Assembly: GCA_044507735.1 (NCBI GenBank)
Contig: JBIQJB010000001.1
Span: 1 to 64,000, forward strand
Direction of reading: 5' to 3'
Source: Nitrosopumilales archaeon
GTDB lineage: Archaea > Thermoproteota > Nitrososphaeria > Nitrososphaerales > Nitrososphaeraceae
DNA length: 64,000 nucleotides
Shown: positions 3,871 through 39,125 of the stretch, piece after piece
Position numbering within the stretch: position 1 is the first letter of the stretch
Layout: each line of letters begins with the position of its first letter
Position numbers and translations under genes: made by a program
Notes under the pieces: generated by a model
What the model saw: only the letters and a program-made list of their open reading frames with translations
The model's database searches: none
Told to the model about the DNA's origin: nothing

Positions 3871-6800
3871 ATGATGGAAGAATCTGCAAAAATTTTGGGT
3901 GGAATAAAGTTCAGCGTTTGGTCGCCTACCGAGGTCCGCAAGTTCTCGGTAGCCGAGATCACTGCACCGGAGACATACGACGAGGACGGCATGCCCGTTC
4001 AGGGTGGCCTTATGGACAACAGGCTGGGCACGCTGGAGCCGGGTCAGAAGTGTGCCAGCTGCGGCAACACTTCTGCAAAATGCCCCGGACACTTTGGGCA
4101 CATTGAGCTGGCCGAACCTGTGCTCCACATCGCGTTTGTAGACGACATCCACAAGCTTTTGCTCATCTGCTGCAGGTCGTGTAGCAGGATCAAGCTCGAG
4201 CCGGAGGAGCTTACGCACTACAAGCAGATCCGCGACACAAAGGCTGCGTATGCTGTCATAACTCTTGAAAATATCAAGGACGAAATAATCGAACGGGCCA
4301 AGAAAGTCAAGATCTGCCCACACTGTGGCAAGGAACAGTACGACCTGATATTCACCAAGCCGACAATTTTCGTTGAAAAGACTGACGCCGGTGAAAACAG
4401 GCTCTTGCCAATCACAATACGTGAAAGGCTGAGCCACGTTCCGGACGATGACCTGACTTTGCTTGGATACGATCCCAAGACCGCAAGGCCAGAATGGTTC
4501 GTTCTCCAAGTGCTTCCGGTTCCGCCCGTGACGGTAAGGCCATCAATCATACTTGAAACAGGCATAAGATCAGAGGACGACCTGACACACAAGCTGGTAG
4601 ACATTATCAGAGTCAACCAGCGGCTCAAGGAGAGCAAAGAGGCAGGCACTCCGCCACTGATCGTTCAAGATCTCGTGGACCTCCTGCAGTATCACGTTAC
4701 AACATACTTTGACAACGAGGTGTCTGGCATCCCGCAGGCCCACCACAGATCAGGCAGACCTCTCAAGACTCTGACCCAGAGGCTCAAGGGCAAGGAGGGC
4801 AGGTTCAGGGGATCGCTTTCGGGCAAGCGTGTGGACTTTTCAAGCAGGACCGTGATTTCTCCTGACCCCAATCTGAGAATTTCCGACGTTGGCGTGCCTA
4901 TAGACGTAGCCAAGAAGCTCACCATACCTGAAACAGTTTCACAGTGGAACATTGAACGGCTCAAGGCGCTTGTGGTAAACGGTCCCAACACTTATCCAGG
5001 CGCCAACTATATCATCAGGCCCGACGGAGTCAAGATCAGGCTTGATTACGTCACCGACAGAAACGCAATAGCCGACTCGCTCGCTTCAGGCTACATCGTC
5101 GAACGCCACCTTGCGGACGGCGACATTGTGATCTTTAACAGGCAGCCGTCGCTGCACAGGATGTCCATAATGGCACATAGCGTAAGGGTGCTCCCCTACA
5201 GGACGTTCCGCCTGCACCCTGCAGTATGTCCGCCATACAACGCAGACTTTGATGGAGACGAAATGAACCTACACGTGCCGCAGAGTGAAGAGGCCCGGGC
5301 TGAAGCAACTCTTCTCATGAGGGTTCAGGACCAGCTGATCTCACCAAGGTATGGTGGCCCGATCATTGGCGGCATTAGGGACTTTATCACGGGTGCATTC
5401 ATGTTGACGCGCGACGGCTCGACGCTGACGAGAGACGAGTTTGCAAATCTGGCAATGATTGGCGGCTACAATGGGCCACTGCCGGAGCCGTCGATAACGA
5501 CAAAGGACGGCCAAAGGCTCTACACCGGAAAGCAACTCTTCTCGCTATTTCTGCCAAAGGACTTTAACTTTATCATCACGTCAAAATGGAACAAGGCGGC
5601 AAAGGGAGAGGGGAAGGATGTCGTCATAAAGAACGGCCAGCTCCAGAGCGGCGTGATCGACAAGGCATCGATTGGGGCAGAAGAGCCGGACAGCGTGCTA
5701 CACAGGATCGCCAAGGACTATGGCACCGAGGCCGCAAGAAAGTTCCTGGATTCTATTCTGACCATGCTCAAGACGTACATTACACATAGGGGATTCACGT
5801 ACGGCTACTCTGACCTTTGGCTTTCACCAGAAACAAGGCAGGAAATCAGTGACATTATCCAGAAAACCTATGAAAAGGTCTACGAGTTGATACAACAATA
5901 CAACGAAGGGACACTGCCGCTGACAAGAGGCCTTTCAGCCGAAGAGGCGCTCGAATTGTACGTAGTCAACGAGCTGTCTAGGGCCCGCGACCGTGCAGGC
6001 AGGACTGCCGACAGGGCTTTTCCAGATGAAAACTCTGGCGTCATTATGGCGTCCACAGGTGCTAGGGGCTCGACCCTTAACATCGGCCAGATGACCGCAG
6101 CGCTTGGACAGCAGTCGATCAGAGGCAAGAGGATCATGAAGGGCTACCACAACAGGGCACTATCACATTTCAAGCCAAATGATGCGAACCCTGATGCAAA
6201 GGGATTTGTCAAGTCAAACTACCGCGACGGGCTGTCGCCTCTGGAGTTCTTCTTCCATGCCATGGGTGGTAGGGAAGGTCTGGTAGATACGGCAGTCAGA
6301 ACACAGCAATCTGGATACATGCAGAGAAGGCTCATCAACGCGCTTGAACACTTGAAGATTGAATATGACCAGACAGTGCGCGACCCGCACGGCAATATCG
6401 TTCAGTTCCTATACGGAGAAGACGGCATCGACCCCGCCAAGAGCGATCATGGCGAGGCTGTCAACATTTCCAGGCTCATTGAAGCTGAATCCATTGTCGA
6501 CGAGGGCAGAAAGGCTACTGAAGATGTCATCAAGGGCATCATCGCCAAGTACGCCGAGAACCTTAACCCGAGGATGAAGGCCAACCTAGAAAAGGCACTG
6601 CTCGAAAACAGGCTAAGCAAAGAAGGTGTCGAGAAAGTGATGAAGAAGGTGCTCGACCTGATCGACAAGGCACTTGCCGAGCCCGGAGAAGCGGTCGGAG
6701 TTGTGACTGCACAGTCCATTGGCGAGCCGGGAACCCAGATGACTCTCAGGACGTTCCACTTCGCAGGCGTAAAAGAGAGGAACGTTACGCTCGGCCTTCC

Positions 6801-7698
6801 GAGGCTAATTGAGCTCGTGGACGCGCGCAAGAAACCCGTGACCCCTACGATGGACATCTACCTCGACGAGGAGCACAGGGTGTCTCGGGAGAAGGCACTT
6901 GAAGTCGCAAGAGAAATCCTGTTCACTCAGATAGGCGACCTCGTAGAGAGGACTGAGACCGACTATAGTGGCGTGCTGACGTTCTACCTGTCTGAAGCGA
7001 AAATGACGGAAAGAGGATGCACCTTTAATGACGTTACGGCAGTGCTTGAAAGTGCCAAGAAGAAATACACCATCAAGGCCAATGAGAACAAGCTCTCCAT
7101 AAAGATCACAGTGCCTGACGAGCCTGACGCACAGACACTGCTGACCCTCAAGAGCAAGCTGCTCAACACAAGGGTAAAGGGCGTGCCAGATATTGAGCGC
7201 GTAACAATAGTCAAGCAGAACGATGAATGGGTGATCCAGACTGCAGGGTCGAACCTTGCAAAGGTGGTTGCGGTAGATGGCATTGATCTGACAAGGATCA
7301 CCACCAACAACGTCTACGAGATATGGCAGACACTTGGCATCGAAGCTGCAAGAACTGCACTGATCAAAGAGATCACCAATACACTAGAAGAACAGGGTCT
7401 TGAAGTAGACACACGTCACATCATGCTTGTTGCAGACCTCATGACGTCGAAGGGATATCTGCAACAGATAGGCAGGCACGGTATTGCGGGAACAAAGACG
7501 TCGGTGCTTGCTAGGGCTGCATTCGAAATCACAGTACCGACAATTGCAAAAGCATCGCTTGAAGGCCAGGTAGAGACGCTGAAAGGAGTAACAGAAAACG
7601 TTATAGTGGGTGCCACTGTACCGGTCGGCACTGGAATGGTGGACCTATACATGAAGGTGAAGGATAACAACAATGAAAGCGCTGGAAAAAGTGATTAA
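3871..7698 (+). CDS. rpoA: RNA polymerase subunit A (Rpo1, fused A'/A'')
   Basis: Catalytic NADFDGD, N-terminal CPGHFGH, SIGEPGTQMTLRTFH in one 1275-aa ORF. Confidence 0.99.
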   Translation: MMEESAKILGGIKFSVWSPTEVRKFSVAEITAPETYDEDGMPVQGGLMDNRLGTLEPGQKCASCGNTSAKCPGHFGHIELAEPVLHIAFVDDIHKLLLICCRSCSRIKLEPEELTHYKQIRDTKAAYAVITLENIKDEIIERAKKVKICPHCGKEQYDLIFTKPTIFVEKTDAGENRLLPITIRERLSHVPDDDLTLLGYDPKTARPEWFVLQVLPVPPVTVRPSIILETGIRSEDDLTHKLVDIIRVNQRLKESKEAGTPPLIVQDLVDLLQYHVTTYFDNEVSGIPQAHHRSGRPLKTLTQRLKGKEGRFRGSLSGKRVDFSSRTVISPDPNLRISDVGVPIDVAKKLTIPETVSQWNIERLKALVVNGPNTYPGANYIIRPDGVKIRLDYVTDRNAIADSLASGYIVERHLADGDIVIFNRQPSLHRMSIMAHSVRVLPYRTFRLHPAVCPPYNADFDGDEMNLHVPQSEEARAEATLLMRVQDQLISPRYGGPIIGGIRDFITGAFMLTRDGSTLTRDEFANLAMIGGYNGPLPEPSITTKDGQRLYTGKQLFSLFLPKDFNFIITSKWNKAAKGEGKDVVIKNGQLQSGVIDKASIGAEEPDSVLHRIAKDYGTEAARKFLDSILTMLKTYITHRGFTYGYSDLWLSPETRQEISDIIQKTYEKVYELIQQYNEGTLPLTRGLSAEEALELYVVNELSRARDRAGRTADRAFPDENSGVIMASTGARGSTLNIGQMTAALGQQSIRGKRIMKGYHNRALSHFKPNDANPDAKGFVKSNYRDGLSPLEFFFHAMGGREGLVDTAVRTQQSGYMQRRLINALEHLKIEYDQTVRDPHGNIVQFLYGEDGIDPAKSDHGEAVNISRLIEAESIVDEGRKATEDVIKGIIAKYAENLNPRMKANLEKALLENRLSKEGVEKVMKKVLDLIDKALAEPGEAVGVVTAQSIGEPGTQMTLRTFHFAGVKERNVTLGLPRLIELVDARKKPVTPTMDIYLDEEHRVSREKALEVAREILFTQIGDLVERTETDYSGVLTFYLSEAKMTERGCTFNDVTAVLESAKKKYTIKANENKLSIKITVPDEPDAQTLLTLKSKLLNTRVKGVPDIERVTIVKQNDEWVIQTAGSNLAKVVAVDGIDLTRITTNNVYEIWQTLGIEAARTALIKEITNTLEEQGLEVDTRHIMLVADLMTSKGYLQQIGRHGIAGTKTSVLARAAFEITVPTIAKASLEGQVETLKGVTENVIVGATVPVGTGMVDLYMKVKDNNNESAGKSD

Positions 7699-8560: not shown

Positions 8561-8990
8561 ATCTCCGTTAGGTCTGTTCGCAGGCAGGGTTCTCAAGTCT
8601 AAGAAGAGCCGTGCCAGGTGGGCAGATAAGTACTACAAGAGAAGGATGCTCATGCTTGACAAGAAGGCAAACCCTCTAGAAGGGGCGCCTCAGGCAAGGG
8701 GCATAGTGCTGGAAAAAGTTGGCATCGAGTCGAAACAGCCCAACTCTGCCGTGCGTAAGTGCGTCAGGGTTCAGCTTATAAAGAATGGCAAGTCGGTAAC
8801 TGCCTTCCTTCCAAGGGACGGCGCTCTGAATTTTGTTGATGAGCACGACGAAGTTATTATTGGCGGCATTGGCGGCTCGATGGGTGGCGCAATGGGTGAT
8901 ATCCCCGGCGTCAGATGGCAGGTATTCAAGGTCAACGGCGTTTCGCTGAATGAGCTGGTGCGTGGAAGAAAGGAGAAGCCGAGAAGATGA
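8553..8990 (+). CDS. rps12: 30S ribosomal protein S12 (uS12)
   Basis: [22 protein letters not shown]. Confidence 0.98.
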
Positions 8991-9592
8991 GCGGGAAAGA
9001 ACAAGTACACATACAGCTGTTCCACAAGTGGGATCCTAGTGGCATCACGATAAACGATCCTGGCTTGAAGAATGTTATCAGCCTAAAGCCGGCTGTAATC
9101 CCTGTGACTTTTGGAAGACACGAACACCAGCGACTAAAGAAAGCAGAAGTCAACATCGTGGAGCGCCTGGCAAACAAGATGATGCACTTTGGAAAGAAAT
9201 ACGCCAAGAACACCGGCAGAATGGGCGGCAAGAAGGCAAGGATGCTCACCATAATCAAGACTGCGTTTGAGATCATCTATCTGGAAACTGGAAAGAACCC
9301 AATAGAGCTGCTTGTAAGAGCAATCGAGAACTCTTCACCAAACGAGGACACGACCCGCATTGTGTATGGTGGGGTTGTCTACCATGTCTCGGTTGATGTT
9401 GCTCCGCTGCGCAGGGTCGACCTTGCGCTGCGCTTTATCGCGGAAGGAGTGAGGGAATCAACCTATAGCAATCCACAGACGATCGAAGAGGCACTTGCCA
9501 AGGAGATCATCCTGGCTGCCAACAACGATATGGCAAGCCATGCTGTAAAGAAGAAGAACGAGCAAGAAAGAATCGCAATGGCTTCTAGGTAA
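8987..9592 (+). CDS. rps7: 30S ribosomal protein S7 (uS7)
   Basis: [27 protein letters not shown]. Confidence 0.98.
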
Positions 9593-9602
9593 AAAAGCCA
9601 AC

Positions 9603-9625
9603 CTTTTTTCCTTCCTTTATTTCTC
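9603..9625 (+). terminator. Probable oligo-T terminator of the rpo/S12-S7 operon
   Basis: Pyrimidine/T run directly after the S7 stop. Confidence 0.5.
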
Positions 9626-9680
9626 TATATTCTGATTTCATAATTATTAAAAGCGATTGCTGCTTCACCCTCTTTCAAAG

Positions 9681-9736
9681 GGGGCTAGGCTGAGCGGGTG
9701 ACGCAGGGGGGTGGGGGGAAAGCTCCCCTAGCCTCG
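9681..9736 (+). ncRNA. Candidate small structured tRNA-like RNA lacking an anticodon arm
   Basis: GC-rich island in an AT-rich spacer; GGGGCTA/TAGCCTC terminal stem; TATA-like TTAAAAG begins 34 nt upstream, the same spacing as for the tRNA-Ser gene. Confidence 0.55.
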
Positions 9737-9939
9737 CAGTGACATTTCTTATGAAAACTCACGTGGTTTGCTGTCGATATAAAATTTGTCGCTGCACAGA
9801 ATGCCAGATTTTTTTCTCTCAGATTCTCAATCTGCTGTGTATATGCGTATAGCGACAGCAAGAGGCAATGGAAGAATCTCAATACCAGCAGCAAAATTCT
9901 TGAACTTGCTGTATATGGTGGCGATTCCAGTCGACGAGA

Positions 9940-10152
9940 CTACTCTCGGAGTCCTGACCGTCCGCCCTGTGCCCTGCGAAACACATTCATGCCCAGATTG
10001 TAATTCTCAAAGAGCGACTGCAGAGTTTCTAGCTCGGTAGAAAGCATCGCAATCTCGCCCCGGTTCTCTTCGGGCTTTTTCATAAGCTCTTCAAGCTTCG
10101 CCTTTTTCTCGGCCAAAAGCTTGCCTACGTTGTGCTCGTATTCGCTTGACAC
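9940..10152 (-). CDS. Small coiled-coil hypothetical protein
   Basis: 70 aa, charged helical composition, plausible codon usage. Confidence 0.7.
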   Translation of the reverse strand: MSSEYEHNVGKLLAEKKAKLEELMKKPEENRGEIAMLSTELETLQSLFENYNLGMNVFRRAQGGRSGLRE

Positions 10153-10634
10153 GTAGGAGGCTGTCAGTCATTCAAATTTTAACGTTTAGGCTGCCTGTGC
10201 TTCTTGGCGCCCAACAATGGGCCCAATTAATCTGTGAACGCTTGCGATTCAGAGGTCTTAATGAACGGTCCAATTCCTTCCCGCCCGAATTCTCTTGTTT
10301 GCCTTTCCGCTGGATATGTTGCCGTGATCCTAGCATTCTCATCGTTTTGAGCATGAAATTTCCGGGAGGTGACAAGAGCAGAACAATACAATGTGCATGT
10401 CTGGGTCTGGATCCAAATTGGCCGAATTAATCCCGTCAGTTAACATTGTTAATCTAGCTTAATTAGATAAGGTGACTACATAGTAGTCGAGTATGCTCGT
10501 GGTAAGACATATCGCTAGTATCGAGAGGGTGTGAATTTGAAGGCCAAGGTATTTCAGAAATGCTATCTAGGTCTGTCTGCAGATGGTACCTTTGACACTC
10601 CCAAAGATACAATCTGTTATCATGGAGTAGCGAT

Positions 10635-11834
10635 ATGAAAAATTCGTATTATGGGTTTTGCATCAGTACTCTGATTGCCCTGTTGCTTTTGGGCGCCACC
10701 ACTATTTTCGCAGGCAATGCCATAAGCAATGTTGCTATTTCAAAGGCATTTGCAGCTGATGATAATTGGTACGTAGGAGAAGGCGCCAAGCAGGATATGT
10801 ATGTTACATACAGAATCGAGGACCATGATACCAATAATGGTGCTCCTTATACGATGACTATCTACTTTGAAGAACAGGATGAAGATGGTGACTGGATCGC
10901 GCCTGCCTTCATAGTTGACAATGGAAATGTGATAAATGGAACGCTCGAGCTGAGCTCGCTTGACATGTCAGTCTTGGGCAGCGGGACACAGATTCCTGAC
11001 GATATGATTCCTTATGTCAGCGGCTACAAGGATTCGCTGCAATGGCTATCTGCATATGCACCAGCGCCAGGTCAGTCCCTGAGTAAAGCTTCGTGGGGCA
11101 AGATAGCAGCCATAGGCGGTTCGGAGATAAAGCCAAGTGGAACTGAGAAGATATCTGTAGAAGGTGGGACGTTTGATACGACGAAGATATCATACCACAA
11201 ATCTGTAGACAACACCATATGGGTGGCAGACGGATTCCCATTTCCAATAAAAGCAGAGACATACGCAGATGTGACTACGGGACAGCCTCCTCTGCAATAC
11301 GCATTCGAACTGGTAGCCACGGGGACTGGCAGGCCGCCAGAACCAACCAGTACCACGGAAATACCGCAACCTCCGCTTGAGCAGAGGACTGCTAGGGGAA
11401 CATATTACATAGACCTGAACTGGACTCCTGCCGAGATAAAGCCCGGCACCAATGTCACTTTCGCTGTCAGCTTTTCTGACGACAAGCACCAGCCAGTTCA
11501 AGATGTTGCATACAACTTCAAGGTGACAGATTCCAAAGGAAATGTCTTGGCAGATCTCAAGAACCAGCTTGCAAGGGGTGCAGTGGGGGAGCAGACAGTC
11601 AAATTCACCGAATCAAATGTAGGGTCCGTAAAGGTGGATGTCGATATAGTGGCAGTTGGTTCTAGGGATCCCGGAGCCTTCATAGAAGAAGCGACCTTCA
11701 ACGTTGTGGCGGTGCCAGAGTTTCCAGCAAACATTGCGATTCTTTTGACAGCCGGGCTTGTAGCCTTCATTCTCGTGACATCACGTCTACGCGGCACCAG
11801 AACAAATCTGCCACCCTCGCATTCCGGTTTCTGA
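10635..11834 (+). CDS. Secreted cell-surface protein with PEF-CTERM-like sorting signal
   Basis: Signal peptide; C-terminal VPEFP + TM helix + basic residues. Confidence 0.8.
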   Translation: MKNSYYGFCISTLIALLLLGATTIFAGNAISNVAISKAFAADDNWYVGEGAKQDMYVTYRIEDHDTNNGAPYTMTIYFEEQDEDGDWIAPAFIVDNGNVINGTLELSSLDMSVLGSGTQIPDDMIPYVSGYKDSLQWLSAYAPAPGQSLSKASWGKIAAIGGSEIKPSGTEKISVEGGTFDTTKISYHKSVDNTIWVADGFPFPIKAETYADVTTGQPPLQYAFELVATGTGRPPEPTSTTEIPQPPLEQRTARGTYYIDLNWTPAEIKPGTNVTFAVSFSDDKHQPVQDVAYNFKVTDSKGNVLADLKNQLARGAVGEQTVKFTESNVGSVKVDVDIVAVGSRDPGAFIEEATFNVVAVPEFPANIAILLTAGLVAFILVTSRLRGTRTNLPPSHSGF

Positions 11835-12187
11835 CCTCTCTCGCCGAGCTGTCTGCAACAGATTCGTCAATGAAGGCGCTACTGTCACAAATTTTTGTCG
11901 GACGCGCCAAGTTGAGGTAAAGCATGATCCGGGGATAGCGTGACAGTAAGTTATCGGACAAGAAACTTGATCCACTCTAATGTCTAATCACCAACTTCGG
12001 AACGAAGCTATCGACATTATGACACTCAACCCGTAAATAACCAATTTTCGATTTGGCGGGTATACATGGTTGAAAATACTGCATATCAACAAGTTGAACA
12101 ACTCTGCAATTGCAATTGTCAAATTCTCCGGAAGAATCATGATTGTGAGGTGTTCTTCCTCTGACTAGCAACGTAACAAGAGCTTCT

Positions 12188-12910
12188 TTGGACCAGAATT
12201 CTGGGCAAAGGAATGCCAGCAAGGACGGATCGCGAAATATTGTACTCGTCCACGGCTTGTGGGCAGATGGATCCTCCTGGAACAAGGTAATTCCAATATT
12301 GGAGAAGGCAGGGCACAGGGTTATTGCTGTGCAACTGCCTTTGCATTCACTGGAAGAAGATGTAGCTACAGTAAAGCGTGCAGTTTCACTGATCGGCGAA
12401 CCAACAATACTTGTAGGGCACTCATTCGGTGGGTTCATAATTACGAATGCCGGCTATGAGAATGAAAACGTAACAGGGCTTGTATACGTTTCAGCCTTTG
12501 CTCCTGACGAGGGAGAAAGTACCGTAGACTTTGTCCCTGTCGCTTCCCTGCCACCGGGATTGTTGGTCTCCGATGGCGGAGGATTTACTTACTTGAACCC
12601 AAAGATGTTCCACGAAGCGTTTGTTCAAGATGTTGACCGGGACGAAGCTCAAATCTTGGCCGATGTCCAGAAGCCAGCTCATCAATCGCTCTTTGCTGAA
12701 CCGTCAGGCCCTCCTGCTTGGAAGCATTTATCCACATGGTTTGAGGTGTCCGAGGGCGACCGCATTATCCCTCCTGATGTCCAGCGCCAATTCGCAAAGC
12801 GAATGAACGCTACAACCATCTCGCTTAACTCAAGCCATGCTTCACCGGTCTCTCATCCAAACGAGATTGCTGAATTTATCTTGGAAGCTGCGAAAGAGAC
12901 TTCAAGGTGA
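12188..12910 (+). CDS. Alpha/beta hydrolase (Abhydrolase_6-like)
   Basis: VLVHGLW, GHSFGG nucleophile elbow, DRII, SSH. Confidence 0.9.
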   Translation: MDQNSGQRNASKDGSRNIVLVHGLWADGSSWNKVIPILEKAGHRVIAVQLPLHSLEEDVATVKRAVSLIGEPTILVGHSFGGFIITNAGYENENVTGLVYVSAFAPDEGESTVDFVPVASLPPGLLVSDGGGFTYLNPKMFHEAFVQDVDRDEAQILADVQKPAHQSLFAEPSGPPAWKHLSTWFEVSEGDRIIPPDVQRQFAKRMNATTISLNSSHASPVSHPNEIAEFILEAAKETSR

Positions 12911-12916
12911 TGATAT

Positions 12917-13900
12917 GTGACCCGGGAATCGCGTGCTTATCACACACTGGAGCTAAAGACCAAAGCCTTTCTGGAAGACCTCCAGAGTCAGAATGGCCCT
13001 CCAATCTACACTCTGTCACCAAAAGATGCCCGCACAGTTCTTTCCAACCTTCAGGCATCAGTTCCTGTTGAAATGCCTCCTGCCCATATCGAGGACCGTA
13101 CCATCCCAGGGTATTCAGATGATGGTCTATCGATCAGTATTGTCAGACCTCAAGAGAGCAGCGAGAAGACGCTCCCTGTTGTAGTATACATTCACGGCGG
13201 AGGATGGGTGCTAGGAGGCTTTGATACACATGAGAGGATTGTCAGAGAGATTGCAAACATGGCGAACGTGGCCATTCTTTTTGTCAACTACACCCCAGCT
13301 CCTGAGGCTCAGTATCCAGTCCAAATAGAACAGGCCTATGCAGCCATGAAATGGGTTGCGGAAAACGGTAGGTCCATTAACGTCGATCCGTCGCGTCTTG
13401 CTGTTGTTGGCGACAGCGTCGGTGGCAACATGGCTGCTTCAATTACCTTACTTGCAAAAGAGCGTGGCGGGCCCCGGATTGCTTTCCAAGAACTCTTTTA
13501 TCCGGTAACAGATGCTAATTTCGACACTACATCGTACAAGGAATTTCAAGATGGCTACTGGCTTACACGCGAGGCCATGAAATGGTTCTGGAACAACTAT
13601 GCACCAGACAACGCTACTAGGAAAAAGCCAACCGCATCGCCATTGCAGGCTTCAATCGATCAGCTAGAAGGACTTCCCCCGGCGCTTGTGATTGTGGATG
13701 AGCACGACGTGCTACGCGATGAGGGCGAGGCCTATGCCCACAAGCTGATGCAAGCAGGGGTTCACGTCACAGCAACTCGAATGCTTGGAACCATACACGA
13801 CTTTATGATGCTAAATCCAATATCTACCACCGCGCCAGTGCGCGGGGCTATAGATCAAGCTTCGGATATGCTGGCAAAGGTCTTGTCATCATCGCCATAG
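12917..13900 (+). CDS. HSL-family esterase/lipase
   Basis: HGGGW, GDSVGG, DVLRDEGEAY, HDF. Confidence 0.92.
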   Translation: MTRESRAYHTLELKTKAFLEDLQSQNGPPIYTLSPKDARTVLSNLQASVPVEMPPAHIEDRTIPGYSDDGLSISIVRPQESSEKTLPVVVYIHGGGWVLGGFDTHERIVREIANMANVAILFVNYTPAPEAQYPVQIEQAYAAMKWVAENGRSINVDPSRLAVVGDSVGGNMAASITLLAKERGGPRIAFQELFYPVTDANFDTTSYKEFQDGYWLTREAMKWFWNNYAPDNATRKKPTASPLQASIDQLEGLPPALVIVDEHDVLRDEGEAYAHKLMQAGVHVTATRMLGTIHDFMMLNPISTTAPVRGAIDQASDMLAKVLSSSP

Positions 13901-14108
13901 TCGTCGGCGTCAAGACCAAAATCCTCACAGCTTATTGAGGAAGCCTTGGTTGTGCGTTCGGATACGACCGGTCTCGCTACATCACTTTCTTCTTTCTTGC
14001 AGGTTCATCTTAGAAGTCACAAACAACCAGCTCCGAGTTCTAAATCGGCGATTTTCTTAGCAAGGTCACTCTCCTGACTCCCTGAAACCCCTTGCTGGTT
14101 ACAGCTCC

Positions 14109-14142
14109 ACACAGCCTCTATTGTTATCAATAACGGCTGTGT
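14109..14142. terminator. Stem-loop between convergent genes
   Basis: ACACAGCC/GGCTGTGT stem with inner GTTAT/ATAAC. Confidence 0.35.
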
Positions 14143-14203
14143 CGCTTGCTATCGAAAAAGCATAGCGCCCTATTCTAGGCTATTTGGATCAGGCATCTTG
14201 GCG

Positions 14204-15553
14204 TCAAGAAGCCACCGAGTCAGAAATCGAGGATTTTTGACCAGAGACTCCGTAGTCTGAGGCAAGCTCGTTCTGTATTTCCTGAGCAGCACGTCTTGCG
14301 CTTGCGAGTGACGCGTTTGACAACAATCCTTCCGAACCGACCCAGTCTCCCACTATGTACAATCCGTCATCGATTCTTGGGGCGGGTCGCCCTGACAGTC
14401 CGCCGCTTGATGCAACAGGCAAGGCGTTTGTAACCGCCATACTGGGCAGAGGTCTTTTCTTTACAACTACTTCCCTCCAGCCGGGCTGCAGCAAATCAAG
14501 CAGTTCTTCCAGCTCCTTTCCGTCCTCTCTTGGATTTGGTTTGATCGATGTACCCAGGTATTTCGCCACATGGATAAGTGCTCCATTCGGGGGAGCGAGT
14601 TCTGCGCTTGCTGAATGCACTGAAAAGTATAGTGGAGAATCGATGCCAAGGGCAAACATCATGTCCTTTTGTGGGAGGCTACTAAGTGCTACGTCCAAGC
14701 ACACCATGCGTACGGGCTTGGACTCGTTAACTGCCTTTGACAACGCTTCAGGCTTTTCGCCCTCTCTAAACAGCGCTTCTGCCTCATGAGGGCCACCTAC
14801 TGCAATTACAAGAACCTTTGCCGATATCTGGCTATTGTCAGATAAAGCAACTAGCCAGCCAGACCCGCTCTTTTGCACCTTGGACGCCTTCTTTCCCACA
14901 TCAATTCTTGCGCCGGCGTTCTTTGCAGCTTCGACAAGTCCTGCCACTAGGGTCTGCCATCCTCTATCTAGATACATGACCCCGCCTTGATTGTAAACGT
15001 GGAACTGGTGCAAGGCAGAACCTGCGCTCTGGATGTCGGGATCATTGGCGTATGTTGTCAGGCGGATTAGTGCCTTCATCAATTCGATTGAGTCAGAATC
15101 ATGAAAATTCTTATCAATCCATTCCTGCACGCTGACGCGCTCCAGTTCTGCGAAATCAGACTTGTTTAGTAGACCGGTGAGCTGAGCAAAGACCTTCCCC
15201 GGACCAGATTCGCTCGCTTGAGTCGTAGAGTCCGAGCTGCCATTCACCAACAGCCGATGGTTCTTGACATCTCTTATCTCAAAGCTTGTAGCTGAGGGTA
15301 TTCCGCCGGTATATGAGATCCCTAACTCTTGCAAGAGTCTAGCCCCTGCATCAGCGAGGAATAATGCATGTGGTCCTTGATTGAAAAAATATCCATCATG
15401 AACTAGAGTTCTTGCACGACCCCCTATTTCATTTGACGATTGTTCATACAACGCTACAGATTTTCCGGAGCGAGCAACTAATGCTGCAGTAGCCAGACCC
15501 GCAAGCCCTCCGCCAATAACTACCATATCGACACTGTCAATCGTCTTTTCCAT
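14204..15553 (-). CDS. FAD-dependent oxidoreductase (phytoene desaturase/amine oxidase-like)
   Basis: VIGGGLAG, GGRART, LYIVGDW; start placed at ATG 15553 (track ORF begins 15607). Confidence 0.85.
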   Translation of the reverse strand: MEKTIDSVDMVVIGGGLAGLATAALVARSGKSVALYEQSSNEIGGRARTLVHDGYFFNQGPHALFLADAGARLLQELGISYTGGIPSATSFEIRDVKNHRLLVNGSSDSTTQASESGPGKVFAQLTGLLNKSDFAELERVSVQEWIDKNFHDSDSIELMKALIRLTTYANDPDIQSAGSALHQFHVYNQGGVMYLDRGWQTLVAGLVEAAKNAGARIDVGKKASKVQKSGSGWLVALSDNSQISAKVLVIAVGGPHEAEALFREGEKPEALSKAVNESKPVRMVCLDVALSSLPQKDMMFALGIDSPLYFSVHSASAELAPPNGALIHVAKYLGTSIKPNPREDGKELEELLDLLQPGWREVVVKKRPLPSMAVTNALPVASSGGLSGRPAPRIDDGLYIVGDWVGSEGLLSNASLASARRAAQEIQNELASDYGVSGQKSSISDSVAS

Positions 15554-15963
15554 AAACTCCCATGCCTCGTAGACATTGGTTTTAAGGATTGAATCCCAAT
15601 AATTCACTATTAGGACTTCTCTAATTCTAGCCAGCCAGCATTGGTCTTTGAAGGGGCTTTCTTGTGTTATTTGTAGAGCTTGGTACCCCTCTTCTACTAC
15701 ATCATGGGCATCAGCAATCAGGTACTGTCAAACCTCTGTCAGATGAATTATCCCGAGATAAGGGTCAATCGGACGATAACTTGACATGGGATCTGTCGCC
15801 GCTGCATATGACGACCCGGCGATCCACAAGAGAACGCACGGATTCTTGTAGGTTGACCGAACGATGTTTTGCATCCTCATTTGCACTAATTGTAATTGCT
15901 CAGATTAGTACATTCGTCGAATGCACCAGTCCTCTTTAATTGTTTTTTGTCATTTACTAAATA

Positions 15964-16623
15964 ATGCGAAACAATTTTGCAAGACTAAAATTACTTGCTA
16001 TCGTCGCAGGCATTAGCGCCATAGTTGGAGTGGTGGCTTACAACAACTCTGTGTTTGCAAGCCACAGCTTTGAACTGGGCGTTACCGGCGAAATGGTGCC
16101 AGATAACACGCTCATACGACTCGACGGTCTGACGCTGCCACCTACCGCTGCAATGCCTCTGTATGACGCAAGCCCTAACTTTGTTTCCGGCCACTTTTTG
16201 ATGAGAGCCCCATGTGACCCCGATACCAAAGTCCCCGAAGTAACCGTCATTGCAGGACACATTGATGAAAGTGCAAGCAGTACCCGCGTAGACAAGGTTC
16301 CGCTGTATTACATAGAACATGCATCTACTGCCGGCAGCTGCGTGTACCATGCACACATTCCAGACCCGCTCAACGGAGGTGCTCCACGGGTAACTGATAT
16401 AGCCTTGATCAACCTCTCAGGTCGGGATATTACCTTCAACCCTGGAGATATTGTAGATATTAACATCCAGAGAACCTTGGGCAAGATTTCAGACATGCCC
16501 TATGAAGGAGACGAAGTACAGCTGCCTGCAGAACTGACACATGGAAACCCAGTATTCGATCTCAACGATGACAACCCAGACAATGACGGCGTAGGATTCC
16601 ACCATGAGGAGGCTGAAGAATAA
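15964..16623 (+). CDS. Secreted His-containing hypothetical protein
   Basis: Signal peptide ending VFA; AGH, YHAH, FHHEE. Confidence 0.75.
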   Translation: MRNNFARLKLLAIVAGISAIVGVVAYNNSVFASHSFELGVTGEMVPDNTLIRLDGLTLPPTAAMPLYDASPNFVSGHFLMRAPCDPDTKVPEVTVIAGHIDESASSTRVDKVPLYYIEHASTAGSCVYHAHIPDPLNGGAPRVTDIALINLSGRDITFNPGDIVDINIQRTLGKISDMPYEGDEVQLPAELTHGNPVFDLNDDNPDNDGVGFHHEEAEE

Positions 16624-17420
16624 TGACAGGACGAAATAGAAGATCCTCTGCATTCATCATCGCTGCAGCGATAGTGGCGACAGGGTTGTTGGCACCTTCT
16701 ATCGTCGGCACTGCATTTGCACACCCGCACCTCGTCCTGACCCCTGACAAGTCCGACCATGATCAGATGAATGCCAATCCCGTAGTTCTGACATTGGGGC
16801 ACAGCAACGAACCTTCGTTTGGGGCAAAACCCGGAATACATGATGGAAGGCATGATTTTGAGCTCAGCATAGAAGATGCTGCGACTACGCTTCCACTGGC
16901 TGGCGCAAATCTTACTCTGGATAGATACTATTTCGAGGACATCGACGCTTTTAATAGCGCGTCTTCGCCACAAAATGCTACTGAAGTTGAGACCGGAATA
17001 CAGCTGCGCGGGGTATTTGGAGAGCCAGGCGTATATTCAGTTAGGCAGATAGTGAAGGAAGGCATTTACGGGTACAGAGTCTACGGCACAATCGACTACT
17101 TTGGAGTAGCTCAGATTTCAATAGACAGCACTGTGTTCTGCACAACTCCATCCGGAAACACATCGAAGTTCAACAGCCCTGGATGGGTGGGCAGCTTCGG
17201 CTGTGTTGACGACATAGACAGCCTGCTGTTCCCAGAGAATAACAGCGAGGTTCGCCTAACAGTAGCAGACAGTGACGGCGAGCAGACCGCGCAGGTAGGT
17301 ACAGTATCCGACTCTACGAGCTACATGCTCGCAGCCGGCATACCCGCAACCGCAGTTGCTGTCCTATTTGGCGTAAGGACGCTCAGATCCCGCAACTCAA
17401 TGAAGGATGGCCCAATCTAG
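16623..17420 (+). CDS. Secreted, C-terminally anchored hypothetical protein
   Basis: Signal peptide AFA-HPH, C-terminal TM; start overlaps the previous stop. Confidence 0.75.
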   Translation: MTGRNRRSSAFIIAAAIVATGLLAPSIVGTAFAHPHLVLTPDKSDHDQMNANPVVLTLGHSNEPSFGAKPGIHDGRHDFELSIEDAATTLPLAGANLTLDRYYFEDIDAFNSASSPQNATEVETGIQLRGVFGEPGVYSVRQIVKEGIYGYRVYGTIDYFGVAQISIDSTVFCTTPSGNTSKFNSPGWVGSFGCVDDIDSLLFPENNSEVRLTVADSDGEQTAQVGTVSDSTSYMLAAGIPATAVAVLFGVRTLRSRNSMKDGPI

Positions 17421-17492
17421 CGGGCACTTGCATCCTTTTTTTCTTCTCTTATCTTGGTGGATTGCTAATATTTCGTTCCGAGAACCAACATC

Positions 17493-17951
17493 CTACTCGC
17501 CAGCAGCAGCCCCTTCAACAACATTAAATCCCAAGTCAACGCTTTCCACCTTCCTGCCTGCGCTGTCAGTAACGATCAAATCAAAAGTATGTCTACCCGG
17601 AGTATCAAAACTACGGGTCACATTTTGGCCAGTCAAGGTGACGCCGTCGTCGAACTTTATCTCAAACGTATACGGCGGCGTTCCGCCCCTGGCGCTGGAT
17701 TCAAAATAGCCTTCCTCGCCGACGACCAATGATGTCTTGTACTTCACTATAGGCCTCAGATTTTGGTTAAAATTCTGCAGGAAGTTCGGGTCGTCAAAGG
17801 GGTCTTGCCCTCTGCTCTCACCTATTCCTCGCTGGAAGAGGAATCCTTCAGTTTGATAGTCCACCACAAATAGCGTTACACCTATTGCAATTGCTATCCC
17901 TACCGCGCCAAAGACGATTGCAAGTTTTGTGCTCCTTGGAAGCGAGGTCAT
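17493..17951 (-). CDS. Membrane-anchored PKD-domain protein
   Basis: N-terminal TM; GGTPPYTF..FDDG..TPGRHTFDLIVTDSAG. Confidence 0.8.
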   Translation of the reverse strand: MTSLPRSTKLAIVFGAVGIAIAIGVTLFVVDYQTEGFLFQRGIGESRGQDPFDDPNFLQNFNQNLRPIVKYKTSLVVGEEGYFESSARGGTPPYTFEIKFDDGVTLTGQNVTRSFDTPGRHTFDLIVTDSAGRKVESVDLGFNVVEGAAAGE

Positions 17952-18213
17952 GGCATATGGCGGTCATGTATTTACCATTTCTGATATACAAAGCTATATC
18001 GCAAGCTGCGGATTTGACCGCAGGGGAAAAAGCCCGTTCCATATCGAATTTGAAGACTCTATTGTGCACAGACTACTGTGTGCCCGCCCATGCCACCCAC
18101 ATTTAATTACCAGAATAGTCGTTGAATGCCCGTGCATAGTCAACGTGATTTCGGTTTCTACCATCAGCCCCGCTTTTAAGCAAGGTTATCTTATCCAAAG
18201 GTGTATAAACCAT

Positions 18214-18600
18214 TCAAATTTTGGCTTTTACCTTGCGTGCTTTTTCGATAAAGGCCTGCTGGTAGTTTGCATATGCCTGCCGATCCTCTAGGCACTGGTT
18301 GCATATGCATGCCTGTGACACTGTCTGCCTGTCACAGTCTGCTTCAAAACCACACTCGGCGCAACCAGCTGACCTGCCGCAGATAAAGCATTCAAGCTCT
18401 GGAACTTGTTGTTGTTGTGGCGGTTTTTCTCCTTTTTTCTCTCCCTCTTTCTTCCCCTCCTCTTGCGCTGCTTCGCACTTTTCGTGCTTGATCGCCTTGC
18501 TGCTCTTTGACCACAGCGCGTATTCTCCCGGCTGTATCTCCTTGCCGCACCCGACACATTTCCCCTTGAACTTTACCATCAGCCTTATCCAATCACTCAT
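18214..18600 (-). CDS. Double zinc-finger hypothetical protein
   Basis: CxxC...HxxC and a second Cys cluster; overlaps the RFC stop. Confidence 0.8.
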   Translation of the reverse strand: MSDWIRLMVKFKGKCVGCGKEIQPGEYALWSKSSKAIKHEKCEAAQEEGKKEGEKKGEKPPQQQQVPELECFICGRSAGCAECGFEADCDRQTVSQACICNQCLEDRQAYANYQQAFIEKARKVKAKI

Positions 18601-19835
18601 TTCCTTTTCGCCTTCTCGATCTCCTTTGCTATCGACTCCCCAACTGATTCATCGCCAAAGTTGTCCACTGAAAATTCAATCGGGTCAATTTTTTCCTCGA
18701 TCAACAGCCTTATGAAATATGGCAATGCAAATGATCCTGCAGAGCTCTTCGAAGTGTGAAGCGCAGGAGCAAGCTCTGCCAGAATCTTTCTTGTCGATTG
18801 CGATCGGGCAAATATTGGACCCATGACTGGCCAAGGCATGGCGTATTGTGTATACTTGATGGCCTTTTTCCGCGACCTTTCATAAAGCCCTGCTGCAATT
18901 ATACTGTTCACATATTTCAGCAGGCGCCATTCTCTCCTTGCGTTTGCCCTGCCCACCATCATGTCGGCCTTTGAAAGCACATCGAGCATGTGCGCGAGAT
19001 CTTCCTGTCCTATTTTCGAAGAAACGATGCTTGAGAACAATGCGGCGATCATGTCCTTGCGCCGGTCTTCCGGTGATGCACCATACCTCGGATCAGGGTA
19101 CGACGCGTCCGCGTTCGCAATAAATTGCGTCGCCTGTTCTACTGTCTCCGCATTAAAGTAGCCATTGACTGCATCGGCGATGTCAATGTCCACGATGTCT
19201 TTGTTTGATACTGTGGCATAGCCTGAAACCCGGGACTGCGCACTGTTGAGCATAGAGCGGATATCTCCTCGGCTGTTATTGACTATTGAAATCTTGTCCC
19301 CCGGACCGAGTTTCACATTTTCACTCTGAAGCACATGGTCAAGAAACAGCATCAAAAGGCGCGGTGGGACTGGCGAAAACTCTTGTGTCTTGCATACCTT
19401 TGCAAGGTCCTTTATCTTGGTAGACTTGGCATTTGCTGCCATTATTACCGGTACGGTGGGCTCCTTCATGAGGTCGATCAGCACATCCAATCCTCCCGAG
19501 TCTTCCCTGCCTGAGATGCCATCCACCTCATCAAGGAAGAGCATTATTTTTCTCCCGAGGAGGTTTGCAGTGTTTTGAAAGACGGGCGTTATCCTGGCCA
19601 GCAAGGTTTCCTTGTTGCGAGCGTCGCTTGCGTTCATTTCCACCAAGTCAAAGTCAAAATGCCTCGCAAGGGTATGGGCAAGCGTGGTCTTGCCGGTTCC
19701 CGGTGGGCCGACTAGCAAAAGTGGTTTGCTTCCGCTCACCCAGCCAGTCAGCCACTTGAGGGCTGCAAGTCTGGCGCTTTCGTTGCCCACCATTTCCTGC
19801 ACGGTCTTTGGCCTGTACTTCTCAGACCACATCAT
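18597..19835 (-). CDS. rfcL: Replication factor C large subunit
   Basis: WSEKYRP, GPPGTGKT, EMNASDAR, DEVDG, GDIRS. Confidence 0.92.
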   Translation of the reverse strand: MMWSEKYRPKTVQEMVGNESARLAALKWLTGWVSGSKPLLLVGPPGTGKTTLAHTLARHFDFDLVEMNASDARNKETLLARITPVFQNTANLLGRKIMLFLDEVDGISGREDSGGLDVLIDLMKEPTVPVIMAANAKSTKIKDLAKVCKTQEFSPVPPRLLMLFLDHVLQSENVKLGPGDKISIVNNSRGDIRSMLNSAQSRVSGYATVSNKDIVDIDIADAVNGYFNAETVEQATQFIANADASYPDPRYGASPEDRRKDMIAALFSSIVSSKIGQEDLAHMLDVLSKADMMVGRANARREWRLLKYVNSIIAAGLYERSRKKAIKYTQYAMPWPVMGPIFARSQSTRKILAELAPALHTSKSSAGSFALPYFIRLLIEEKIDPIEFSVDNFGDESVGESIAKEIEKAKRK

Positions 19836-20962
19836 TTGGCAACAGCTTCTTGCATCTTCCGTTGGAACTCTGAAAACGGCGCCCGCTTGAGAAGATCGTT
19901 GTACCAGTATTGATTGTAGTGCCTTACCGTCAGAAACAGAAACTCGAGGAATGGTCTTAAATGAAAGCTGTCTGGGAGCATGTCTAGCGCAATCTTGGCC
20001 TCGTCCAAGTACAGCTCGCTCTTGGCCATCGTGAGCTCAAAGCCACGCCTGACATCTTCTGTATTGAGGGCATAGTAGAGAGGCCATGACGGCACCTTGA
20101 TTGCATTGTTCTTGATCGCATCCTCAATCTCGTTGCCACAGCCTACGCACTCGCCTGCCTTGGCCATGCCAAGGTGAAAAATGTCAGATAGTGGTCTGCG
20201 ATTGAGTGCCATGTTCCTGCCTGCAGTGCCCATCACTGCCCGGTATTTCTTGTAGCACTCGGTCATATTCTCGTCATTTATTGATGCTGGGTTCATCTTC
20301 AGCTTGACATCGATGTACTGACCGATGCGCGCGTCTTTGAAGCCATCTTCAAAAGCCTTCAGGACCGTGTCGCCTCCCTGAGCGATCTTGCTTCGCGCTA
20401 TTCCGAGGATATATGGGTTCATGAACCGGTAATCGTCCAGATATTCCAAATCCTCGTCCTTGTCTACGATCCTATCCATCGGCTCTGATAGGTCAATTGC
20501 AATAATGTGTCCATCGATTACCGCATTTCTCTTTTCTTCCGAAGGTTCGTCGCCGAAATATTCTGAAGCGCCGTCATACAGCGCGTTGAAAACGGGAAAA
20601 GTCATCTTGACAAAATTGGAATTCAGTATGCGCTTGACTCTGTCAGCCAGGATATCCAGGTCTGACAGCCTGGTCTTGATGTCAGCCACGCTTGAATCGG
20701 GTAGGGTTAGCTCTTGAGAACCAACATCCTCTGCAAACTTGCGGATGGTGCCCGCAGGGTTTTCATCTGCGGATATTGCCTTATGCAGTGACATGACAAA
20801 CCTCTGGGCAAATCCAGAAAATTCCTGCTCGGTTTTTTCTTTGTACTGGTTGAATTGTTTGTAACCCTTGCTCCTTAGCAGTCCCTGTTTCATTATGTCC
20901 TTTCCGGCCTGCGTGCTCCGGAGCGCCTCCATTGAAAAGATTGATTCGTCTTTGCTACTCAT
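19832..20962 (-). CDS. Hypothetical protein, possible divergent isoprenoid-synthase fold
   Basis: 376 aa helical ORF; DRIVDKDED, GQYID and GECVGCGNEIEDA resemble prenyltransferase motifs. Confidence 0.7.
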   Translation of the reverse strand: MSSKDESIFSMEALRSTQAGKDIMKQGLLRSKGYKQFNQYKEKTEQEFSGFAQRFVMSLHKAISADENPAGTIRKFAEDVGSQELTLPDSSVADIKTRLSDLDILADRVKRILNSNFVKMTFPVFNALYDGASEYFGDEPSEEKRNAVIDGHIIAIDLSEPMDRIVDKDEDLEYLDDYRFMNPYILGIARSKIAQGGDTVLKAFEDGFKDARIGQYIDVKLKMNPASINDENMTECYKKYRAVMGTAGRNMALNRRPLSDIFHLGMAKAGECVGCGNEIEDAIKNNAIKVPSWPLYYALNTEDVRRGFELTMAKSELYLDEAKIALDMLPDSFHLRPFLEFLFLTVRHYNQYWYNDLLKRAPFSEFQRKMQEAVAK

Positions 20963-21724
20963 TCTTTGCTATGTTTTGTGTAGATAGCCATTGATAAGCG
21001 TTGACTACTGCTAGTGCTGAACGGTAGGTCAAGATTCCTGCAATACATATCGAACCTCCCGCAGCTTTCTGTTGCCGATATATACGCACGCAGATTGAGA
21101 AGCCGAGAGGGAAGGTCTGGTACTCTGCAAAGTGACCTCTACTCAAGAAAACTTTTCAAGTTCTTGCTCTGCTGCAAGTTCTTCTTTTGTTCTTCCTTTG
21201 GCAGTATATGAGTGGAATTTGCAATTGAAGATCCTGATAATGATCAAGGTGATTGAACGATGGTGTGGGTGCATGCTCATCGTTTATTCAACAAGAAAAG
21301 CTGGTGATTCGTCCACCGGACACACATTCTTCTCAACGTCTTTTCTATCAAACGAACATGAAAGTAGTTTCAAGTATAATCTTCGAGTATCCTTCAAGAT
21401 TATCAAGAGGAGAGAACGATCTGCATCCGTCTGCAAGCTTGCTCAGCAAAAAATATCATGAATGTATCGAGTGCATGTGGGGGTGGGAAAGCGAAATAAC
21501 GATAATTGCCGCGTTATTCCAAGGGGCGCATATGGCAGTGGCGTCGCCTGTGTGGCATCAGAAGCACGGGCGATGTTGAAATCACCCAATAAGGAAAATT
21601 CCTCTCCCTCCCTAATGAAATAATCATCAGGACTGCAAGAAAAACAAACACGCATGCGTATGACTTAGCTCTTTTCGCTAATAATGAATTTATATGACGA
21701 CTTGCTCGCTTTAACTACATCCCG

Positions 21725-38819: not shown

Positions 38820-39024
38820 TGATGATTGCTGCCTCCCTCAATTTTTAGTTTTGTCTTGGGTACGTGCTATTGTTTTCAACTATTTCCACCTAGAACGACA
38901 CATAGCATATCATCCGGTGTGTTTCAGGCAGCCTCTGGACTAGTTCCGTCGAAGGAATGGCGCCCTGCAACCCACAATATCGGCTTATGATTAATATACA
39001 GACAGGTTTGTCCAAGATGTGGGT

Positions 39025-39125
39025 GCCGGGATCGCCTAGCCCGGTAGGGCGCAAGCCTGGAATTTGTCAAACCGGCCAGCTTGTGACCCGTGAGGGTCCC
39101 GAGGGTTCAAATCCCTCTCCCGGCG
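39025..39125 (+). tRNA. tRNA-Ser(GGA) with 15-nt intron at 37/38 (39063-39077)
   Basis: GCCGGGA/TCCCGGC acceptor stem, CAAGC/GCTTG anticodon stem, long variable arm, GGTTCAAATCC T-arm, TATA TTAATATA at 38991. Confidence 0.93.

Follow-up and report, generated by a model that had tools for sequence, protein, structure and literature searches.

A candidate gene for a small structured RNA downstream of rps7 in Nitrososphaera and a few relatives

Archaea of the genus Nitrososphaera are major ammonia oxidisers in soil. The described RNAs that come closest to the short GC-rich element analyzed here are tRNA, RNAs with tRNA-like modules, the Alu 5′ domain of SRP RNA and the archaeal guide RNAs. The tRNA-like domain of tmRNA, the mammalian mascRNA and the bacterial YrlA keep a T-loop and are parts of, or are cut from, longer RNAs. 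We know of no module of this type from archaea and, to our knowledge, a free-standing tRNA mimic would be the first such in Archaea. Box C/D sRNAs carry a C box near the 5′ end and a D box near the 3′ end, which form a K-turn. In H/ACA sRNAs, the upper stem contains a K-turn, there is an internal pocket, and an ACA lies three nucleotides past the lower stem.

The element lies in a 64,000-nt stretch (hereafter, the window) of contig JBIQJB010000001.1 of an archaeon of the Nitrososphaeraceae (assembly GCA_044507735.1). An earlier sequence-only reading had described it as an anticodon-less, tRNA-like small RNA that tRNA scanners would miss, and the scanners do miss it: ARAGORN finds no tRNA genes in the window, and the element has no match to the Rfam tRNA model, even at E values of up to 10. 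At the gathering thresholds of Rfam, the element is unmatched and the sole match in the window is a tRNA at 39025-39125. A search of Rfam 15 at E values of up to 10, run on positions 9400-10000 and on the corresponding loci of six relatives, gave no meaningful overlap with the element, i.e., no known family, and the family is absent from Rfam. Over the whole genome the tRNA model retrieves 31 matches, and the element is not among them. With just 31 matches, several intron-rich tRNA genes have probably been missed; the tRNA at 39025-39125, an intron-containing tRNA-Ser(GGA) whose variable arm is long, is itself missed by ARAGORN and scores 45.7 bits with Rfam. Literature searches at the level of abstracts, together with PMC7554672, yielded no description of a small RNA of this kind in Nitrososphaera and none of promoter motifs in the genus.

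The locus downstream of rps7 and its predicted transcript

The element follows a row of plus-strand genes, rpoA'' (3871-7698), L30e, NusA, S12 and S7, of which rps7 is the last (Table 1). Past the rps7 stop codon come a T6 run, which is likely the end of the rps7 transcript, an AT-rich spacer, a promoter-like block and a GC-rich stretch at about 9680-9738; the small RNA starts 85 nt past the stop codon. The reported GC-rich island of about 56 nt is readily seen: the GC content of 9681-9735 is 73% versus 32% in the spacer (9593-9677) and 49% in the whole window. Stretches of 55 nt that are this GC-rich occur six times in the 64-kb window. The other five all lie within ORFs, one of them being the glycine/arginine-rich start of ribosomal protein L15. 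Since the island under study is the only one of the six outside an ORF, it is real and unusual. Its fold energy is not above chance in comparison with shuffled sequences, neither for the window element (z = -0.35 on the plus strand and -0.22 on the minus strand) nor for eight copies (z = -0.3 to -1.65, with one at +1.27). It is thus by its conservation, and not by its folding energy, that the element is more than chance. It is single-copy in the source genome, where no match of more than 13 nt was found in either orientation; antisense targeting and mimicry of rRNA or tRNA by sequence were rejected on this ground. On the opposite strand, a 70-aa ORF at 9940-10152 (-) is convergent with the small RNA and has no significant family match; an exact 201-nt contig from a poly(A) RNA library (9909-10109) overlaps this ORF.

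Table 1. Features of the locus (window coordinates; strand as given)
Feature	Position	Strand	Details
rps7 (ribosomal protein S7)	8987-9592	+	ORF list, tblastn gap table
T6 run after rps7	9604-9609	+	sequence
Promoter-like block	9636-9663	+	TTTCATAATTA, A/T box TTAAAAG (9647-9653), CGATTGCTGC; alignments and flanks
Predicted transcription start	9677	+	purine after pyrimidine, ~27 nt past box centre; geometry only
Small RNA, extent matched by covariance models	9678-9738	+	61 nt, 70% GC
P1, 5′ strand	9681-9688	+	GGGGCTAG, pairs with 9728-9735
P2 hairpin (junction model)	9691-9705	+	TGAG/CGCA, internal A.G, 7-nt loop CGGGTGA
Purine-rich junction	9706-9715	+	relatives AAGGGCGTGG plus one variable base; G at 9 of 10 positions in the window
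P3 hairpin	9716-9727	+	GGGA/TCCC, 4-nt loop AAGC; chosen by RNAalifold
P1, 3′ strand	9728-9735	+	CTAGCCTC
First long T run (T7) past the RNA	9809-9815	+	sequence
Gene of 375-aa Nitrososphaerota-specific protein	19835-20962	-	here 11.2 kb from the RNA, inverted

The promoter-like block is co-conserved with the RNA in relatives. In 24 of the 25 distinct copies of the element an A/T box, located by eye, starts about 30-39 nt before the terminal helix P1, its variants being TTAAAAG, ATAAAAG, TATAAAAG and TTTTAAG; the second copy of genome G070 has no A/T box at the expected place. The tRNA genes counted in the source genome have boxes that start 30-35 nt before the mature 5′ end, so the box-to-P1 geometry of the element matches that of the genome's 30 tRNA genes. 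The spacing equality noted by the sequence-only reading is exact, since TTAAAAG starts at 9647, 34 nt before G9681, and the box of tRNA-Ser(GGA) at 38991 likewise lies 34 nt before 39025. Geometry thus places a putative start near A9677, with a leader of about 3 nt.

The T-rich stretch that had been claimed to follow the element is merely TTTCTT (9745-9750); the first long T run, T7, lies further downstream and may be the end of the primary transcript. In the intact copy of G062 and in the G090 copy, T4-T5 is reached at the last pairs of the helix, in the G027 copy T4 follows four nucleotides after it, and in the G074 and G273 copies T6-T7 follows after 22-25 nt. No T run was found within 40 nt 3′ of copies that precede the gene of the 375-aa protein, and most genus copies have none ahead of the next gene.

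Expression data consisted of assembled contigs from three runs, compared over 9300-10300, in which strand and ends are not encoded. Two contigs match exactly: one of 151 nt covers 9673-9823 (the RNA label of its source run is a guess), and one of 160 nt, from a soil metatranscriptome, covers 9716-9875. No contig of the three runs covers 9606-9672. Both continue beyond the helix on its 3′ side and may derive from DNA, and we take them as neither supporting nor refuting transcription of the element.

Distribution, genomic context and diverged relatives

The region 9400-9960 was used as a BLAST query against relatives. In four genomes, similarity is continuous from rps7 to the element and ends at about 9738; in two others, the element and its upstream block lie 0.5-0.7 kb further from rps7; and in G027, which belongs to another family, the same 100 nt are found at 76% identity. 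Covariance models R1 and then R2 were built from the relatives' sequences of the element, and the window copy scores 84.7 and 84.9 bits with them, respectively. In the genus, 19 of 72 genomes have a match (10 of 27 high-quality genomes), at 46-90 bits, and the complete genomes G057 and G074 are among the carriers; in these and the relatives tallies the unpublished genomes G009 and G022 are counted as non-carriers only. Matches were further obtained in 10 of 151 genomes of the family sample, from 2 of 18 genera (g1, 8/20; g19, a sister genus, 1/1), and in 7 of 141 genomes of the order sample, three of the latter being false because they fall within a gene of ribosomal protein L4. The matches in genus g10 (E ~0.002-0.004) are located in this gene and were dropped as false positives; a weak match in G049 (27 bits, L061) that has only P1 in common with the element was dropped as well. 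A core-pattern scan of viral contigs retrieved no matches, one scan of a metagenome collection retrieved six contigs with the element, and a scan of genome contigs retrieved 16; of these, R2 recognizes the seven MAG contigs whose titles name Nitrososphaera or Nitrososphaeraceae but none of the nine bacterial ones. The total is 34 matches, of which 25 are distinct.

The element that the sequence-only reading had singled out in the spacer after rps7 is thus conserved among relatives, as the 19 carriers in the genus and the 25 distinct sequences attest. Across the 14 genomes in which rps7 is immediately followed by the element, pairwise identity averages 0.85 for the RNA, 0.68 for rps7 third codon positions, 0.64 for the spacer and 0.98 for rps7 codon positions 1 and 2. 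As judged from these identities, the element is under purifying selection, since it evolves slower than the third codon positions of rps7.

Most genomes carry one copy. G062 has a degenerate copy at the usual place, with the P3 hairpin lost, and an intact copy elsewhere. This intact copy and that of G027, from two families, have only 112 nt in common (loci L032:1498-1609 and L046:1501-1615), at 84% identity; the common unit consists of promoter and RNA, and the surroundings are unrelated. This suggests transfer of a small unit or else strong constraint, and the occurrence in two families may reflect horizontal transfer of a very small gene cassette. Two variants in length were also observed: the G090 copy (L053:1501-1580) has about 20 extra nucleotides in the second hairpin, where a longer, 6-bp helix with the same 5′ strand is possible, and the G273 copy (L060:1501-1568) has 9 extra nucleotides in the junction.

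The copies occupy at least five genomic contexts. Seventeen follow rps7, and 17 of the 25 distinct copies lie 39-375 nt upstream of the gene of the 375-aa protein, on the same strand. In relatives, this gene is located between rps7 and the gene of the replication factor C large subunit (e.g., L042:1602-2729). In three genomes the gap between rps7 and the RNA is 322-658 nt, yet the RNA still adjoins the gene. Seven copies, including that of the window, have no such gene downstream, yet they are intact; one locus ends too early to tell. Six copies (the second of G070, the intact one of G062, and those of G027, G074, G273 and G090) are near neither rps7 nor the 375-aa gene; several of these face a convergent gene, and in three a T run marks the end, either at P1 or no more than 4 nt from it. 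The 375-aa gene has a promoter-like motif of its own, which is also present in genus members without the element. In comparison with most members of the genus, about 11 kb of the window (9740-21010) are inverted or inserted between the small RNA and the 375-aa gene; the promoter-like motif of the gene (~20987-21003, minus strand) moved with it, and the RNA stayed with rps7. The inverted gene still has the motif in front of it, and the window RNA, now separated from the gene, is still intact. The 375-aa protein has no family in Pfam or NCBIfam; its neighbour cluster in a protein atlas is labelled class 1 isoprenoid biosynthesis enzyme, which is a hint at most. Neither transposase nor terminal repeats were found near the element.

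The intact form is absent from 53 of the 72 genus genomes, and in 10 of these 53 an AT-rich relative is found at the same place, just upstream of the 375-aa gene and preceded by the same GATTGCTGC motif, as was confirmed in G010, G008 and G020. BLAST with the G010 version matched 11 of 72 genomes, none of them among the 19 carriers; of these 11, G073 is a spurious short match and G022 is unpublished, and one further AT-rich relative, in G020, was seen by eye. P1 is interrupted by a G.G or A.G mismatch in the AT-rich relatives, and no fold common to 10 of them emerges from RNAalifold. They were kept out of the models because MAFFT placed three of them wrongly against the main family. By eye, the relative in G008 has two changed pairs in the P2 register and forms a perfect hairpin of 5 bp there, and that of G010 has a G-C to A-U change in P3; both fit the three-way junction described below. 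We read the AT-rich relatives as decayed or diverged versions of the element, and, on this reading, the element is probably ancestral at the locus and dispensable. The RNA would be dispensable because 53 of 72 genomes are without the intact form and 10 have an unstructured AT-rich relative. In an AT-rich clade of the genus (L085:1476-1600 and L086-L094), a well-conserved block of about 60 nt lies upstream of the diverged element copy and is a candidate promoter or another RNA.

Secondary structure and comparison with known RNAs

The terminal helix P1 comprises eight pairs, with 97% of cells paired and three pairs changed on both sides; C-G/U-A is swapped to U-A/C-G in three sequences, and there are several G-U changes. 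The 7-bp stem GGGGCTA/TAGCCTC (9681-9687 with 9729-9735) that had been folded by hand is therefore kept in relatives and extends to 8 bp, and the covariation that had been proposed as a check is present as compensatory changes in this helix. On these comparative grounds, we regard P1 as certain. In total, 33 cells are G-U, including the second P1 pair in 17 of 25 sequences, and they fit the plus strand only.

P3 is 97% paired, and in G047 an A-U pair is replaced by G-C. The hairpin stacks immediately on P1, so that 12 pairs are contiguous on the 3′ strand. It is likely to form. The 5-bp "T-arm" GGGGG/TCCCC with a 6-nt loop, which had been placed here, fits the window sequence alone: of the 23 distinct relatives that could be scored, 17 do not form one of its pairs, none of the five pairs shows a double change, and the conserved hairpin is the GGGA/TCCC one with the 4-nt loop (9716-9727). 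The full model of the sequence-only reading, with its T-arm register that is not conserved, is 86.8% paired.

The second hairpin is probably P2, whose three Watson-Crick pairs are 97% paired and show one double change; a rival hairpin starting at 9701 and using the same bases is 88% paired. Of the proposed "D-arm" CTG/CAG, the C-G pair exists in just 6 of 25 relatives; the helix continues inwards through T-A, G-C, A.G and G-C. Other candidates for this hairpin, namely a K-loop and shifted GCG/CGC registers, are contradicted by the variable base in alignment column 51; the K-loop reading of CUGA...GUGA is also contradicted by G012, where the G of CUGA is an A that is A-U-paired in the hairpin model.

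These helices can be combined in several ways. Model A, a three-way junction of P1, P2 (UGAG/CGCA, loop CGGGUGA) and P3 (GGGA/UCCC, loop AAGC), is 97.0% paired (91.7% with the A.G counted), as opposed to 35-63% when partners are slid. It has changes on both sides in 6 of 15 pairs, a value reached by 0 of 500 shuffles (25 distinct sequences), although the alignment was fitted to model A and the counts are therefore biased towards it. Model B, a rod of P1, GAGC/GCUC and the hairpin ACGC/GCGU, is 95.2% paired; its GAGC/GCUC helix (GAGC at 9692-9695) has no double changes and is broken in G012, G047 and G027. Model D, a junction of P1, ACGC/GCGU and P3, is also 95.2% paired, its other second hairpin being 88% paired. 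The minimum free energy fold of the window sequence itself was rejected, at 81.9% paired and with one helix at just 64.8%. The RNAalifold consensus contains P1 and P3 only, and single-sequence energies of most copies are about -25 kcal/mol for the rod versus about -14 kcal/mol for the junction. The three-way junction, which the sequence-only reading had listed as an alternative, is thus favoured by the comparative data and is likely, while single-sequence folding prefers the rod, so that the inner fold is less certain than P1.

In this form the element resembles tRNA (RF00005) in outline only. Its 5′ and 3′ ends pair in a helix of 7-8 bp, as in the 7-bp acceptor helix of tRNA, and the helix is stacked on a hairpin; there is a second hairpin with a G-rich 7-nt loop, CGGGUGA, which is compatible with a D-arm (97% paired over three pairs, with two rival pairings using the same bases), the spacing of the A/T box is alike, and the size is of similar order. 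Unlike tRNA, it has no anticodon arm, ten unpaired purine-rich bases (9706-9715) taking the place of the anticodon and variable region, and its P3 has 4 bp and a 4-nt loop instead of a 7-nt T-loop; conserved tRNA positions are lacking. With the tmRNA domain, mascRNA and YrlA it would have in common the concept of an acceptor-like helix with an elbow that serves tRNA-processing or tRNA-binding proteins as a handle. No Ro-type (TROVE) protein was found in the source genome, which is 97% complete.

The Alu 5′ domain of SRP RNA is similar in having about 50 nt, G-rich loops and a helix that closes off two hairpins; the closing helix of the element is much longer. This candidate was rejected, full-length SRP RNA being encoded elsewhere in the genome (G000:C10:131907-132223) and neither the element nor the loci of six relatives having an SRP match (RF01857). 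Size, own promoters and a patchy, fast-evolving distribution are shared with the archaeal box C/D and H/ACA guide RNAs. Neither a C box nor a D box occurs at the element ends, and the 3′ strand of P3 runs directly into that of P1, which leaves no H/ACA-type pocket. An H/ACA-like tail had been suggested from the ACA at 9742-9744; this is found in the window only, and the 3′ tails of the 25 copies differ.

Proposed RNA gene, alternative readings and significance

Taken on the comparative data, the stretch 9678-9738 (+) is reasonably likely to encode a small structured RNA of about 58-62 nt that has not been described before, with its own promoter, in part of Nitrososphaera and a few relatives. 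The earlier claim of an independently transcribed small RNA fits these data (box, spacing, contexts, G-U pairs and compensations); its description as a tRNA mimic goes beyond them, there being no T-loop, no anticodon arm, no tRNA-model match and no conservation of the T-arm register. Transcription would proceed from the archaeal A/T-box promoter of the RNA and start about 3-4 nt before the 8-bp terminal helix. In some relatives it would end at the T run after the helix; elsewhere the 3′ end would arise from read-through or processing. The body would be compact and closed by the terminal helix, most likely as a three-way junction, in which the terminal helix stacks on the 4-bp hairpin with the 4-nt loop and the second short hairpin presents CGGGUGA beside the conserved junction GGGCGUGG. 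The RNA would act in trans through its shape and its conserved unpaired G-rich segments; long antisense pairing is presumably not its mode of action. Most likely it acts by protein binding, and we infer that it binds a protein.

Two alternatives keep the element as an RNA but assign it another role. One is a true tRNA mimic, which would adopt an L shape without an anticodon arm, have its ends made by RNase P, tRNase Z and the CCA-adding enzyme, and serve as a decoy, a tag substrate or a handle for tRNA-binding proteins; this is in our view unlikely. P1 (8 bp) and P3 (4 bp) do add up to the length of an acceptor/T minihelix, the box-to-5′-end spacing equals that of the genome's own tRNA genes, the 7-nt loop of the second hairpin contains GGG, and three copies are closed, like tRNA genes here, by a T run that lies at the helix or no more than 4 nt away. 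CCA directly follows P1 in 9 of 25 copies, but it occurs in close relatives only, has no preceding discriminator base and leads into the promoter of the next gene; of the genome's own tRNA genes, 3 of 30 have an encoded CCA. Against mimicry are also the loop of four instead of seven nucleotides, the G at the position of tRNA U8, the unconserved T-arm register, the invisibility to ARAGORN and to the tRNA model and the 95.2% pairing of the rod. It is accordingly improbable that soil ammonia-oxidising archaea possess a stand-alone, anticodon-less, tRNA-shaped RNA with a tRNA-type promoter that is processed by tRNA maturation enzymes and serves a tRNA-binding protein as decoy or handle; on that reading, the RNA may also switch between rod and junction folds. 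The adjacency of most copies to the 375-aa gene, which holds even in the three genomes with the long gap after rps7 and mostly without an intervening T run, could instead point to a cis-acting leader, a riboswitch-like or protein-binding 5′ control element in the upstream transcript of that gene. We consider this doubtful as well, since the promoter-like motif of the gene itself is present where the element is absent and, after the inversion, in the window, and since the window copy and six others are intact with no 375-aa gene downstream, three of them ending in a T run and facing a convergent gene.

The remaining readings deny the element a present role as an RNA. It could be a relic or a selfish cassette, a short unit of promoter and hairpin that spreads by transfer and decays without a present cellular function, and its patchy distribution (19/72 in the genus, 2/18 genera in the family sample), the degenerate copy beside the intact one of G062, the unstructured AT-rich relatives at the same locus in 10 genomes and the 112-nt unit common to different families are in line with this. 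Nevertheless, we hold it to be very unlikely: intact copies are 85% identical where neutral sites are at 68%, the helices are kept through compensatory changes, most genomes have a single copy, the core pattern is absent from viral contigs, and terminal repeats and a nearby transposase are lacking. Finally, the GC island could function as DNA, as a protein-binding palindrome, a recombination site or the G-quadruplex that had been raised as an alternative fold. In the window, the island adjoins an inversion breakpoint and is G-rich, containing at least four G runs, and the region before P1 looks complementary to the 5′ strand of P1. This complementarity, also considered as an operator or alternative hairpin, is no better than that of shuffled leaders (mean z = -0.43). 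G012 does not retain the G runs, the 33 G-U cells would turn into A.C mismatches if the other strand or a DNA cruciform were the active form, and the conserved promoter-like box at its fixed spacing would have no role. A DNA-level element is thus very improbable.

We therefore return to the small-RNA gene as our preferred reading. Should tRNA enzymes prove to act on the RNA, tRNA mimicry would be extended to free-standing RNAs of archaea; otherwise, the RNA would be one more lineage-specific orphan, of moderate interest. An RNA of 60 nt that is under selection, has a predicted promoter of its own and has apparently moved between families would offer a compact, testable entry to RNA-based regulation or RNA-protein biology in these archaea.
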